Of a stretch of 64,000 nt of DNA, positions 5,589 to 10,028 are shown one piece after another (position 1 is the stretch's first letter; the number at the start of each line of letters is the position of its first letter). The DNA is taken from the IMG/VR virus record IMGVR_UViG_3300047496_000382; one strand, 5' to 3'. The stretch is from a virus. Made by a program: the position numbers and the translations under genes. A model generated the notes under the pieces. The model was not told where the DNA came from. It was given only the letters and a program-made list of their open reading frames with translations, and searched no databases.

Positions 5589-6668
5589 CTATCCCCGGAA
5601 TCGGTCCGCGAGTAGCGGGTCTTCACGGAGCGCGGTGAGCTGTAGTGCGACCGCGGTTTCGAGGTCCTGCAGCGTCCCAATGTTGCTGATGACCCCGTCG
5701 AAGAGCTCGTCTGGGATGGTCGTTTGTTCCGTCTCGCTGAGGTGCTGCCCTGCCGCACCGATGAGTCCTGCTCCAGGGCGTACGATGCGGATGACCTTGG
5801 CTCCGCGCTTCTTCAGCCCCTCGACCTCGTTGCGGAAGCGGATGTCGGGGATGACGACGAACTCCGGGATGGCTGCTTCCGGACGCGGCGCGTAGTCGAA
5901 CAGGCCGCGCTTTGCCTCGTAGCGCGGGTGCGCCCGTCCTTCGTACTTCTCTCGCGGCGCATCGTCGGGGTAGTCCGCCGGATAGACATAGTCCAGCATC
6001 ACGGACTTGCCCTCGAGCAGTTGCTCCGCCATTCGCAGCGCGTACTCAACCCATACGTCTTGGTAGCATCTGCGTCCGAACTCTGTGCCGAGCTGCTGGA
6101 GAGCATGTCGCGGCGTGAGGTACGCGAACGGTTCGTCGTTTTCGTGCCCGACGAGCTGCCCGTCCTTCATGACCGACTTCTTGTAGAAGCTGCGTGGGTA
6201 GCGGGTATCCGGCAAGTTGCGCTTGTAGCTAGCGCCCCAGAGCGTCTCTTCATCCCAGCCGAACCAGTCCGCGCACGCGCGCTTCAAAGGGTCCGCCAAC
6301 GAGACGACGATGCCATCGTGGTTCTTTACGAAGAAGTCGGCTGCCGCAGACTTCCCCGAACCCGCCGCACCACAGATGCCGATAATCATGACTTCGGTCT
6401 CCCCCTTCTTGAGCGCGATGCCGAACTGCTTCGCTAGATTCCCAACAGTGCGCGCGGATACACCCAACAGGCGGGCTACTGCGTCGGCAGTCTGCCCTTC
6501 ACGCAGACACTGCATCGCGCCCTCGACCTCAGCACCCGAGAGCTTCTTCCCTACTGCGCGCCCTTCCGCAAAGGTCACATAGGCTGGGTTCTTTGCATTC
6601 AGCGGCGTTGTGAGCGCCTGTTCTACTGACCATCCGGGAACACCGCCCATGGAATTACTGGTCTCCAT
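5589..6668 (-). CDS. deoxynucleoside monophosphate kinase (T4 gp1-like) with an in-frame N-terminal HTH region; kinase core probably starts at 6389
   Basis: MIIGICGAAGSGKS P-loop, SLADPLK, TPRHALQQLGTEFGR, VVIPDIRFRNE, HLSET motifs typical of phage dNMP kinases. Confidence 0.85.
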   Translation of the reverse strand: METSNSMGGVPGWSVEQALTTPLNAKNPAYVTFAEGRAVGKKLSGAEVEGAMQCLREGQTADAVARLLGVSARTVGNLAKQFGIALKKGETEVMIIGICGAAGSGKSAAADFFVKNHDGIVVSLADPLKRACADWFGWDEETLWGASYKRNLPDTRYPRSFYKKSVMKDGQLVGHENDEPFAYLTPRHALQQLGTEFGRRCYQDVWVEYALRMAEQLLEGKSVMLDYVYPADYPDDAPREKYEGRAHPRYEAKRGLFDYAPRPEAAIPEFVVIPDIRFRNEVEGLKKRGAKVIRIVRPGAGLIGAAGQHLSETEQTTIPDELFDGVISNIGTLQDLETAVALQLTALREDPLLADRFRG

Positions 6669-6670
6669 GG

Positions 6671-7066
6671 TCAGCTCGTGTACCGGCTGACGGTGCCTTC
6701 GAAGACCTGCTTCCAGCCCCAGTCGTCGAGCATGAACTGGCGGTACTGGTCATCGGTGATGACGAGCTGGTCGTCGACGCTGAGGTTCAGCATCCCGAGG
6801 ACGACGTCGTAGTCCTTGGTGTGGTCTTCCGGTTCGGGGAGGTCGAAGTAGAGCGTGATGTGTTCACCCCTGCGGTGCGCCGAGAGACGCGCCTCGAGGG
6901 CCTTGTCGAGGGCCTCGCCGTACGCTTTGTGCGCCTTGAGGAAGACCTCGCGATGCGCGTCGCGATTCTTCTGAATCTGCGCGATGAGGTCAGCCTTGTT
7001 CGCCTTGATGGAGCCGAGGCCCGCATTCTTACCGAAGAAACCACCGATGCCTGCGTCCGGGTGCAT
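6671..7066 (-). CDS. hypothetical protein
   Basis: GGAG ribosome-binding site upstream; protein-like composition. Confidence 0.65.
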   Translation of the reverse strand: MHPDAGIGGFFGKNAGLGSIKANKADLIAQIQKNRDAHREVFLKAHKAYGEALDKALEARLSAHRRGEHITLYFDLPEPEDHTKDYDVVLGMLNLSVDDQLVITDDQYRQFMLDDWGWKQVFEGTVSRYTS

Positions 7067-7084
7067 GTTCTTACTCCTGCGGTC

Positions 7085-8404
7085 TCAGGGACCGACCTTC
7101 TTGTGCTTGATGTCCACCGCGTCGAAGAGTTCGAGCGAAGTGCGGATGCGATAGTCATGGAAGTACTGCACCTCCTGGACGCCGCCGAGGTTGATGAGGA
7201 GCTTCGCGCAGTTATGTGCTATGATGCGGGAAGCACCGGCATGATACCAACCACCGCCGGTCTGGAGGTTGTAGACGTGGCCAGACCAACGATAGCGCTC
7301 GACGTGAACGACCTCATCCAACGCTATCTGGCAGGGGAAGACACCGCTCAGCTCGCGGCGGCGTGCGGCGTTTCCACGGCCACCATCGGAAACCGTCTCC
7401 GCCCACACGGGGTTCTCCGCGAGCGCGGTGAGGGTGGCGCTGCTTACCTGCGCACTCGCCGCATCCCACTCCCGGTACAGGAGGTCATTGCAGCGTATGA
7501 ACGCGGTGAGTCCATCAGTGCTCTGGCCATCCGGTACAACGTAGACCGCACGGCCATCAAGCTCCGCCTGCGCGAAGCTGGTCTCCTTATCAAGGAGAGC
7601 GTGTCGGGTGCTATTGCGCGCGCGTTGCAGAACGAACGCCATCCGACACGGACCGGAACCGGCGAGCGCTGGCTGTGCGATGAGCTGCTCAGGGCCGGGC
7701 TTCCCGTCGTTCTCCAAGGGGCCATCGACCACTACAACGTCGATGTCCGTATCGGGCAGACCGTCGCCGTGGAACTGATGACGTGCGCCGGGACGCCGTA
7801 CCGAGAAGCCCGTGCGCATCAACGACTCAAACACCTTCTCAATCGGCTGACCCTCCTCGTGGTCCGCGCCACCGGCGCCCATCCACTCACCCCCAACGGT
7901 GTGCAGAAGGTGGTCGCCCTCGCACAGCAGCTCTACGGGAGAGAACCCGCGCCCAAGGGTGAGTACTGGGTGGTTCGGGGTGACGGCGAACTCGCCATTG
8001 CGGGTGATGACCCGCACCATCGGGCCCTCGTACCAGCGCCGGTACGCGCGTTGAATAGGCGACGGGCTCGAGACCAGCGTGCCTGACGGAAAGCAGTTCA
8101 CGCAGGGCAAGTGCGTAGCGAAGACAATCTTCTTCGTCTCGCGCGGCACGTCGCAGTTCACGACCGCGTTCGCCTCGGCGTGAATGCAGCCACAAGCTCC
8201 CGGCGTATCGGAGTCACAGCGGTTCGGAAGACCCGACGCGTTGCCGTTGAACCCGACTGCGATGACCTTGCGAAAGTCTGGCGTTGTGATGGCACAGCCA
8301 ACCTGCATGAGCTCGCCCTTGGAGTTGGTACGGCTGCAGGTTGAGCGCTCTGCCATACTGCGGGCGAGGCGCATGTAGATTTCTTCGAACGTCGGCCTGT
8401 CCAT
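7085..8404 (-). CDS. dCMP deaminase (ComEB/T4 cd family) interrupted by an intein
   Basis: STC, VGCAI, GFNG, HAEANA and PCVN|C zinc-deaminase motifs; removing aa 104-398 restores PCVNCAKLLINLGG. Confidence 0.92.
   Translation of the reverse strand: MDRPTFEEIYMRLARSMAERSTCSRTNSKGELMQVGCAITTPDFRKVIAVGFNGNASGLPNRCDSDTPGACGCIHAEANAVVNCDVPRETKKIVFATHLPCVNCFPSGTLVSSPSPIQRAYRRWYEGPMVRVITRNGEFAVTPNHPVLTLGRGFSPVELLCEGDHLLHTVGGEWMGAGGADHEEGQPIEKVFESLMRTGFSVRRPGARHQFHGDGLPDTDIDVVVVDGPLENDGKPGPEQLIAQPALAGSGPCRMAFVLQRARNSTRHALLDKETSFAQAELDGRAVYVVPDGQSTDGLTAFIRCNDLLYREWDAASAQVSSATLTALAENPVWAETVSDGGRGNAARRRELSGVFPCQIALDEVVHVERYRWSGHVYNLQTGGGWYHAGASRIIAHNCAKLLINLGGVQEVQYFHDYRIRTSLELFDAVDIKHKKVGP
7211..8095 (-). 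mobile_element. intein, 295 aa, inserted in the PCxxC motif
   Basis: Block A CFPSGTLV, block B VTPNHPVL, block F HVYNLQT, block G IIAHN, followed by Cys+1; no LAGLIDADG motifs seen. Confidence 0.92.
7277..8086 (+). CDS. antisense-encoded HTH-HTH-PD-(D/E)xK (Vsr/DUF559-like) endonuclease nested in the intein
   Basis: GGAGG at 7264-7268, 8 nt before GTG; two HTH-like repeats (IQRYLAGEDTAQLAAACGVSTATIGNRL and IAAYERGESISALAIRYNVDRTAIKLRL); GERWLCDELLRAGLPVVLQGAIDHYNVDVRIGQTVAVE resembles the DUF559 core. Confidence 0.78.
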   Translation: MARPTIALDVNDLIQRYLAGEDTAQLAAACGVSTATIGNRLRPHGVLRERGEGGAAYLRTRRIPLPVQEVIAAYERGESISALAIRYNVDRTAIKLRLREAGLLIKESVSGAIARALQNERHPTRTGTGERWLCDELLRAGLPVVLQGAIDHYNVDVRIGQTVAVELMTCAGTPYREARAHQRLKHLLNRLTLLVVRATGAHPLTPNGVQKVVALAQQLYGREPAPKGEYWVVRGDGELAIAGDDPHHRALVPAPVRALNRRRARDQRA

Positions 8405-8709
8405 CAGAGAACTCCCCTCTGTTCCAACACTTCACGGATGACACCACGCGCGTACTCGCAGGCGCGCTTCTGGACTGCTCGTGCTTGCGGACTGCCGCGA
8501 TGGGTGACCCCGAACACGAACGCGCAGGTGAACTCCTTCACGAAGGTCTTCTCCCCGTTGGGCGTGCGCCACAGCAGCTGCAGGCCGAACTCACCACCAG
8601 GGCGGGGCAAGAAGACAACACTCTCCGCGCCCGTAGACCGCTGGATGACAGACGTCCATCCCGTCAGCTGCCCACGAAGTCCTTGGAGAAGTGCTTCGTC
8701 TCGCGTCAT
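8404..8709 (-). CDS. hypothetical protein
   Basis: Stop overlaps the deaminase ATG (TGATG). Confidence 0.55.
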   Translation of the reverse strand: MTRDEALLQGLRGQLTGWTSVIQRSTGAESVVFLPRPGGEFGLQLLWRTPNGEKTFVKEFTCAFVFGVTHRGSPQARAVQKRACEYARGVIREVLEQRGVL

Positions 8710-8718
8710 AGTCTTTCC

Positions 8719-9159
8719 ATGTCCGACCCGACGTACTTCTCCTCAGAGCGCTTCATCTTCGACGACCTCGCCAAGCGCGCGGAGCGGATGGTGGAGGAAG
8801 TACGCGCGCAGTGGCGAGAGAAGCAGCGCATCACCAACTGCTGCATCACCTGGCCCGCCGAGGTGCTCAAGGACGATGCGGGACGGGAGATTCAGGACGC
8901 GGTCTACTGCGTACTCCCCCCAGGAGAAGAACAAGAGGCACTACGCAGGATGGTCGAAAGGACCAAGGCCTACGCCCTGGTCCTCATCGAACAGAAGAAG
9001 GACGAACTGCGCGTCCTCTTCGAGAGTCATCACGGCGCGCGCGCCTGGCTCATCCCACTGGAACTTCACGGGGATGTGCGTGTGCCGGGCGCGACGCGCG
9101 TGACAGAGAATGCCGAGTGCGTGGGGCTCTTGTGGAAGCCCGCACGCGGCTCAGCCTAA
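8719..9159 (+). CDS. hypothetical protein
   Basis: Likely start MSDPTYFSSERF; GC3-rich codons. Confidence 0.65.
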   Translation: MSDPTYFSSERFIFDDLAKRAERMVEEVRAQWREKQRITNCCITWPAEVLKDDAGREIQDAVYCVLPPGEEQEALRRMVERTKAYALVLIEQKKDELRVLFESHHGARAWLIPLELHGDVRVPGATRVTENAECVGLLWKPARGSA

Positions 9160-10028
9160 CCGCCGTTGCCCGTTGCCGGCACAGTGGCTGCAGGCGCGAG
9201 CCCGTTCGAGCGCAGAGCCGCATTGGCGCTGCGACGAATCAGCGCCGACTGCGGGTCGCCGTCGTCGTCATCTTCGACCGTCTCCGGCACTTCGATGCGC
9301 GGCGTTTCCGGCGTCGACGCCGCAGCCACGACGTGTGACTTCTTGGTGCTCGCTTCCGACGTCACCGTCGGTGCTGCGGTCTTCGGCGCGGTGGGCAGCG
9401 TCACCGGCGCCTTCAAGGACTTCTCCACTCCGCGCGCGACCTCCGACGGTGGAATCGCCGCGTACTCCTGGAATGCAAAGAACAGCGCACGGTTGTAGGC
9501 CGTCTGCTCGAGAGAGCTGAGCGCGCGAACGTTCGGGTCGTCGTGATTGAGCGCTTGGCGGAAGTTCGAGATGACCATCAGCGTCGCCGTCGTCAACGAC
9601 TCGTCAGAGGCCTGGAGGAGCCCGCTCGTCGCCACGATGCCGGTGACAGATGGAGTGCGCGCCGCCTTCTTGGTCTTCGGCACGCCAACGATGTCGGGTG
9701 CCTTGGCCGCGACCTTCTTCGCCTCTGCTTTGGCGGCTTTCTTGGCCGGCGGCTTGGCAGCTGCCTTCTTCGGAGCACTTGCGCTCTTCTCTGCCGCCTT
9801 CGCGCCCTTCTTGGCAGCCTTCTTCGATGGCTTGGCCTTGGTCGCCTTCGGCGCCGCGGCTTCGACCTCGAAGTGCTTGTTGATGGCCTTGTGCGCTTTC
9901 TCTTTCTCTTCCGCGCTGAAGCTCGCCTTGCCCACCGCACGACGTGCCCCGGGGACACCGCCCTCGGCGTAACGGCCAGAGGCCAGAGCTTCTTTGAATC
10001 GGTCGAACGTCAGCTTCTCGTATTGCAT
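9156..10028 (-). CDS. Lys/Ala-rich histone-H1-like putative DNA-binding protein
   Basis: About 60-aa KKAAKK/PKKAAAK low-complexity basic tract; GGAG ribosome-binding site. Confidence 0.6.
   Translation of the reverse strand: MQYEKLTFDRFKEALASGRYAEGGVPGARRAVGKASFSAEEKEKAHKAINKHFEVEAAAPKATKAKPSKKAAKKGAKAAEKSASAPKKAAAKPPAKKAAKAEAKKVAAKAPDIVGVPKTKKAARTPSVTGIVATSGLLQASDESLTTATLMVISNFRQALNHDDPNVRALSSLEQTAYNRALFFAFQEYAAIPPSEVARGVEKSLKAPVTLPTAPKTAAPTVTSEASTKKSHVVAAASTPETPRIEVPETVEDDDDGDPQSALIRRSANAALRSNGLAPAATVPATGNGG

Follow-up and report, generated by a model that had tools for sequence, protein, structure and literature searches.

The locus described here raises the question of how an intein that interrupts the zinc site of a phage enzyme, and that carries no recognizable endonuclease in its own reading frame, could be mobile, and whether a gene read from the opposite strand of the intein supplies the homing nuclease. 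The window, that is, the whole 64-kb stretch of DNA analyzed, is the start of a 177-kb contig (GC content 62% and 62.5%, respectively), which we read as a large phage because it encodes a terminase large subunit. Moss-metagenome runs may be the origin of this phage contig, and the locus sequence was recovered in one piece only in contigs of the probable source run. A candidate "joint" between 7213 and 8159 in run X5 was set aside: its 21-nt side shows 80% likeness, and it probably belongs to the deaminase of another organism. The 177-kb contig contains no second copy of the element.

The host gene encodes a dCMP deaminase and consists of the following parts.

7085..8404, minus strand: dCMP deaminase precursor gene (439 aa; predicted spliced product, 144 aa)
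8096..8404, minus strand: N-extein (103 aa) ending in ...THLPCVN, with the CIHAE motif (His codon 8180-8182) and the first Cys of PCxxC
7211..8095, minus strand: class-1 intein (295 aa) with Cys1, TPNH at residues 39-42, block F GHVYNL, and a His-Asn end
7085..7210, minus strand: C-extein, starting with Cys+1 (7210-7208), the second zinc-ligand Cys of PCxxC

The deaminase ORF matched PF00383 (E = 3.7e-9) and the PHROG dCMP deaminase family (E = 5.9e-24), and the predicted spliced product contains both zinc motifs of dCMP deaminases, CxHAE (HxE) and PCxxC. The insertion point lies within the latter motif (PCVN/C, the slash marking the junction). Cys1, the block-B TxxH, the terminal Asn, and the +1 nucleophile identify a contiguous class-1 intein; C1, T39, H42, and N295 are invariant among 50 aligned inteins, and the profile of the insert family matched solved inteins (2JMZ, E = 8.8e-10). 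PHROG 15127, annotated as "head protein," also matches the deaminase intein. In typical inteins, block B is located at about residue 70. In 69 of the 71 family members analyzed here, it comes about 30 residues sooner, at residue 38-40; the N-terminal half of the Hint domain is unusually short. The original prediction, made from the sequence of the window, had placed a 295-aa intein at 8095..7211 across the deaminase PCxxC motif, with intact Cys1, TPNH, YNL, HN, and Cys+1, and had described its in-frame middle as devoid of a recognizable endonuclease. The coordinates and residues are all correct, and Pfam, NCBIfam, and PHROG scans of the intein frame detected no endonuclease, LAGLIDADG and HNH families included. 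The intein thus departs from the canonical bifunctional type, in which a LAGLIDADG or HNH domain is encoded in frame between blocks B and F.

The opposite strand of the intein contains a long ORF with the following features.

7277..8086, plus strand: nested antisense gene (269 aa), GTG at 7277 to TGA at 8084-8086, in exact antisense register (-1)
7264..7268, plus strand: Shine-Dalgarno-like GGAGG, 8 nt before GTG 7277, the reverse complement of the block-F Asn-Leu-Gln codons
7277..7576, plus strand: two tandem helix-turn-helix (HTH) repeats (residues ~1-100), the probable DNA-recognition part
7640..8008, plus strand: Vsr/DUF559-like nuclease fold (residues 122-244) with conserved E130, Q147, N154, D156, E166, and R183
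7892..8026, both strands: dual-coded stretch, intein residues 24-68 (minus) and nuclease residues 206-250 (plus)

The 269-codon gene, its GTG start, the GGAGG 8 nt upstream, its TGA, and its exact antisense register had all been called in the original prediction, and these positions hold. Many long ORFs in this 62% GC window have only 0-2 stops in antisense; long open antisense frames are so common that one sequence alone is no proof of a second gene. The plus frame is stop-free already from 6821, so the start at 7277 was deduced from homologues and not from an upstream stop. Relatives were gathered from viral, metagenome, and phage collections, yielding 75 distinct inteins, 71 after removal of near copies. 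Between block B and block F, the region to which all stop counts refer, the exact antisense frame contains 2 stops in 17,450 codons among the 71 non-redundant relatives, compared with about 291 expected from the Leu and Ser content of the inteins and the codon usage of the exteins, and is open in 69 of 71 relatives against 1.5 open cases expected; decayed copies are under-sampled in these counts because relatives were partly gathered with the pattern HQFHGDG, a shadow of the nuclease motif, and P0004, P0005, P0013, P0019, and P0020 are left out of the antisense-frame reading. The other two antisense frames of the 71 relatives contain 466 and 692 stops. The search pattern placed the C-terminus of a few inteins wrongly, which leaves the counts between the two blocks unaffected. 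Internal antisense stops occur in L010:1017-1892 and L016:1501-2367 (codons 96 and 183), where the intein frame is open; these are probably decaying nucleases or sequence errors.

The pattern of substitution points in the same direction. Across the HTH region of 13 deaminase-hosted inteins, identity is 50% in the antisense frame vs 31% in the intein frame, and 1777 single-base differences are silent in the antisense frame only vs 452 in the intein frame only. The relationship is reversed in the C-terminal region that codes for the intein alone, upstream of the antisense start (77 antisense-only vs 384 intein-only silent differences), and is 434 antisense-only vs 626 intein-only in the block-B overlap; all these counts are pairwise and hence non-independent, but the difference is large. 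The nuclease core and the HTH repeats are conserved to the same degree (51% vs 50%). Both comparisons that the original prediction had suggested, a search for scattered stops in homologous inteins and a per-strand analysis of substitutions, came out in favor of the antisense gene, the ribosome-binding site (RBS), start, and nuclease residues being conserved as well. Judged by these comparisons, the antisense ORF is a real gene, with antisense selection acting in the middle of the intein, and the in-frame intein middle would be a tolerated passenger that reads through the antisense gene and is maintained only as a stop-free frame. No sigma-70-like promoter was detected in 6600-9200, and the GGNATAAG motif is absent near the locus and occurs at chance-level frequency in the window. 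A word-indexed search of the 90% protein collection with the antisense product returned zero matches, a result that is uninformative because the profile search with the family found thousands of clusters (2224 protein clusters at E <= 1e-30).

The two genes are interlocked at both conserved splicing blocks. The antisense start codon is the reverse complement of the block-F His codon, and ATG or GTG is found at this position in 66 of 71 relatives. Accordingly biased codons encode block F: the His codon is CAT in 53 and CAC in 13 cases vs 101 and 197 in the exteins, and where this His is lost (5 cases), an ATG appears 2-4 codons further on. The RBS arises from the Asn-Leu-Gln/Glu codons of the same block, in which Leu is encoded by CTC in 54 of 69 relatives vs 27% in their exteins. 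The ordinary archaeal intein 2JMZ also has His at this place (GHIYDL), so that block F may already have contained a usable start codon. At the other end, both frames are under constraint across intein residues 24-68 (identity 56% and 49%). Intein residues 36-46, with FAVTPNHP among them, are read on the plus strand as GEYWVVRGDGE (7958-7990), and in 52 of 71 relatives TPNHP is followed by a rare codon, ATA or GTA (background 10-13%), which yields the antisense Tyr of YxVxRGxG, a strand in the structure model of the antisense protein. Given the two-frame constraint and the ATA/GTA excess, the dual coding originally predicted at block B holds. The last ~20 antisense residues show little constraint and have low model confidence.

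In HMM searches, the 269-aa protein itself produced weak HTH matches and none to Vsr or DUF559; among its relatives, REase_MTES_1575 was matched by 21 of 55 and DUF559 by 6 of 55, and the family profile matched 3HRL (E = 2.5e-5). A structure model built from a 55-sequence alignment (pLDDT 86) has two domains, and its top three fold matches are all Vsr/DUF559-like: Vsr itself (1CW0; Z = 8.8, rmsd 3.1, 113 aligned residues), I-Bth0305I (3R3P; Z = 8.6, rmsd 3.2, 93 aligned), and the DUF559-like 3HRL (Z = 8.1). Z values of 8-9 were only moderately above the background of the fold search, and Foldseek against PDB gave zero matches at E <= 0.001, with 3R3P ranked third; the modeled similarity nevertheless agrees with the sequence evidence, namely, the HMM matches of the relatives and the profile match to 3HRL. 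Thus, of the two HTH repeats and Vsr/DUF559 core that were originally proposed, the core is supported by the fold model, the relatives, and the family profile, but not by any HMM match of the protein itself.

The active site deviates from that of the known enzymes. E130, Q147, D156, and E166 are conserved in 90-100% of the family, and the first Glu, the metal-binding Asp, and the extra acidic residue of the EDxHD site are represented by E130, D156, and E166, the equivalence being taken from the profile alignment to 3HRL and not from a residue-level superposition on 3R3P. The general-base His (Vsr His69, I-Bth0305I His213) is missing in every deaminase-hosted member, none of which has GxxWH, and so is the second Asp (Asp97, Asp222), whose position is occupied by Ala180 in the 3HRL alignment. 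The nuclease loop reads ELMTCAGTPY, and WH is found in no deaminase member. Among 66 family members scored, GGxWH is present in 26 and absent in 40. In a quick, midpoint-rooted tree, most of the His-less members fall into a single branch of 42 rows (SH-aLRT 96), and the deaminase clade (SH-aLRT 99) lies within it. Strict membership in the EDxHD group was rejected because the His general base and the second Asp are absent, and for the same reason catalysis is not assured. By analogy, we liken the antisense protein to a Vsr-type homing nuclease.

The general layout has a precedent. Gosselin, Arsenault and Gogarten described full inteins with an "anti-sense VSR-like HEN" in MuF-like minor capsid genes of actinophages; in these antisense HENs, the Vsr core spans residues 144-267 (Z = 10.6 to 1CW0), HHpred matched 3R3P, and minor capsid inteins with a "VSR -1 ORF" were tabled for Malisha, Sejanus, Vivi2, Fosterous, and Affeca (bioRxiv 10.1101/2025.01.02.630785). 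In tblastn searches, Malisha and Sejanus match the window element in both frames, and all five of these phages match it in the antisense frame. Full-length pairwise comparison with Malisha gp5 gave 29% identity for the intein (E = 5e-25) and 27% for the antisense protein (E = 6e-17), and Malisha falls in the same family tree. On the strength of this homology in both frames, the window element is a member of the published family, so the layout itself is not new, and the suggestion that this was an undescribed design has to be abandoned. Like the published inteins, it is a contiguous class-1 intein with a separate antisense Vsr-like ORF in register -1, in which a helical N-terminal part precedes the Vsr core. 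Unlike them, it resides in a dCMP deaminase, which is not among the 19 host proteins of that study ("deaminase" has 0 matches in its supplements); its nuclease loop is ELMTCxxTPY instead of EVxGGxWH; and whereas the second ORFs of Gosselin et al. are typically outside the splicing domain, the one described here begins within block F and extends across block B, both strands being under selection. What is new with respect to the preprint is the deaminase host, the three insertion sites, the conflict between intein and extein trees, and the subclade without the Vsr His.

Two other systems are comparable. I-Bth0305I, of the EDxHD group (PMC3239194), and the Vsr-like HENs of fractured genes (PMC2677866) share with the window protein a Vsr-type fold, residence in self-splicing elements of phages, and the order of N-terminal DNA-binding repeats and C-terminal nuclease. 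They are found in group I introns or between the halves of split inteins, have NUMOD repeats, and keep the His and the second Asp, whereas the window protein has HTH repeats, lacks these two residues in the alignment, and is encoded antisense in a contiguous intein. In the cyanobacterial dnaX intein, the nuclease is likewise encoded off the intein frame, with frame-dependent purifying selection, but it is a LAGLIDADG enzyme in the +2 frame, and the host gene is chromosomal (bioRxiv 10.64898/2026.09.14.751524). The literature search, incomplete in coverage, found no paper on a dCMP deaminase intein; one match had a terminase intein. The same arrangement is present in a deposited viral genome: gene 003 of Rctr197k (KX853510, L005:2665-4017) encodes a dCMP deaminase interrupted by this intein at PCxx/C and has the same antisense gene, sharing with the window element 45% identity in the intein frame and about 60-61% in the antisense frame. 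Rctr197k_003 is annotated as "putative head morphogenesis protein," a label that probably came from the similarity of its intein to MuF inteins, and the record shows no annotation for either the intein or the antisense gene. A layout described in 2025 is thus invisible to standard annotation. The deaminase case adds a new host enzyme and a quantitative account of selection on two strands, including a start and an RBS inside splicing motifs.

Inteins occupy three sites in dCMP deaminases, all adjoining the Cys/His zinc motifs.

Site a, CG/C-x-HAE: most deaminase copies
Site b, PCxx/C: window copy, Rctr197k, L009, L059, P0004, and P0005
Site c, N/CGCIH: L062:468-1415, two residues upstream of site a

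In trees built without P0013, P0015, and L059, the five site-b inteins group as one clade (SH-aLRT 99), a grouping that does not hold for their exteins (AU p = 8.9e-5). Between P0004 (site b) and P0019 (site a), identity is 90% in the exteins and only 39% in the inteins, and intein-free deaminase alleles exist and are common. We take the intein/extein conflict as a sign of mobility, of the kind that homing with occasional retargeting predicts; recombination between phages or loss could add to it. A recent jump, which would appear as a near-identical intein in a divergent extein, was not seen among the relatives compared, and the inteins closest to the window copy are 47-55% identical to it. 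The deaminase lineage is a single clade, and the relatives within which it is nested reside mainly in MuF head genes (labelled by flanking motifs). Inteins of the same antisense-nuclease family are also present in an FkbM-family methyltransferase (PF05050; L067:1120-2118) and a head maturation protease (PHROG 1028; L115:1561-2406), two hosts absent from the list in bioRxiv 10.1101/2025.01.02.630785. In L121:764-1639, the flanks QLRLRAQ/intein/TIARTE give the appearance of a shift from the usual MuF ARTE/ site, with an uncertain boundary call.

We consider it likely that the locus works as follows. A mobile intein of the "anti-sense VSR-like HEN" type would have colonized phage dCMP deaminase genes. 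The deaminase mRNA would be translated into the 439-aa precursor, from which the Hint domain is predicted to splice by the class-1 route (Cys1, block-B Thr and His, His-Asn, and Cys+1), restoring the PCxxC zinc site. The opposite strand, probably by way of a plus-strand transcript, would separately yield the 269-aa protein from the start and RBS written into the block-F codons. Its HTH repeats would recognize the intein-free deaminase allele, and its Vsr-like domain would nick or cut this allele near the Cys codons; during co-infection, repair from the occupied allele would then copy the element. This is in essence the selfish-element interpretation offered at the outset, and it is supported by the signs of mobility in the tree conflict and by a selected antisense gene with a Vsr-like fold.

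Several other explanations have to be weighed against this scheme. That the plus-strand ORF is a mere shadow of a GC-rich gene read in the antisense register would fit the abundance of long open antisense frames in the window, the lack of a Vsr HMM match for the protein alone, and the empty word search; we rejected it as highly improbable in view of the stop depletion and the codon and substitution patterns across the 71 relatives, the confident two-domain model with its fold matches, and the 2224 clusters retrieved by the profile. A less extreme alternative accepts the gene as real and regards its product as a catalytically dead or repurposed DNA-binding protein, with a regulatory or competitive role, the intein moving by passive recombination. 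The loss of the general-base His and the second Asp in all deaminase members (in 40 of 66 family members, there is no GGxWH) speaks for such an inactive protein, as does the wide variation between subclades of the loop after the invariant Glu. On the other hand, E130, Q147, D156, and E166 are invariant or nearly so, the core is no less conserved than the HTH repeats, and the His-less clade has spread to a second MuF site, the three deaminase sites, the FkbM methyltransferase, and the head maturation protease, which is hard to explain without cutting; we therefore regard inactivity as unlikely.

It is also conceivable that the family homes but that the window copy is inherited, passing vertically, its nuclease heading to decay. 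The stops in L010 and L016 indicate that decay happens, and the absence of a near-identical intein in a divergent extein, with closest relatives at 47-55% identity, would fit such immobility. Against this, the window copy has an intact frame, RBS, and start and all family-conserved residues, and purifying selection has acted on the nuclease over a long time, which implies that homing recurs, so that loss of mobility at this locus seems rather improbable.

Within the preferred scheme of a homing antisense nuclease, a further idea is put forward tentatively, as it could well prove wrong: the His-less branch might still cut, through a Glu/Gln/Asp/Glu plus Arg site unlike that of Vsr and EDxHD, retarget easily, and be locked to the splicing domain. 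The three deaminase sites, MuF, the prohead protease, and the methyltransferase would then count as retargeting, and the locking would lie in the start and RBS in block F and in one fold strand in block B. If true, this branch would be a distinct, retargetable subfamily of homing nucleases and a natural model of double-strand coding. Sites a, b, and c, with close elements directed to different targets in one 144-aa gene, make up a compact test system for cutting, for target choice by the HTH repeats, and for a Vsr-like nuclease without the His general base. Same-family inteins are also present in MuF head genes of the E. coli phage Snoke (L008:1201-2016) and of about 50 Salmonella phage records; the antisense ORF of Snoke has 250 codons and lacks the WH motif. 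Such cultured phages offer tractable systems for tests of expression and homing.

Some further observations concern the phage and the vicinity of the locus. Intein-free bacterial deaminases (L135-L214; best-segment identity at most 68%) stem largely from metagenome-assembled genomes of Myxococcota and Bdellovibrionota, a weak hint from sequence similarity that these might be the host group of the phage. The 177-kb contig encodes zero tRNAs and a tmRNA gene detected by ARAGORN (tag ANDNEVAQRLAA; contig G000 C1, 155475-155845, minus strand, outside the window). Close to the deaminase, at 5589-6668 on the minus strand of the window, a deoxynucleoside monophosphate kinase ORF has an N-terminal extension of ~90 aa that contains an HTH (PF13384, E = 9e-4; PHROG 664) and a WSVEQALTTP motif; the kinase adjoining P0019 shows a weak AP2 match. 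The extension of the window kinase may be what is left of a free-standing homing endonuclease that became fused to it.
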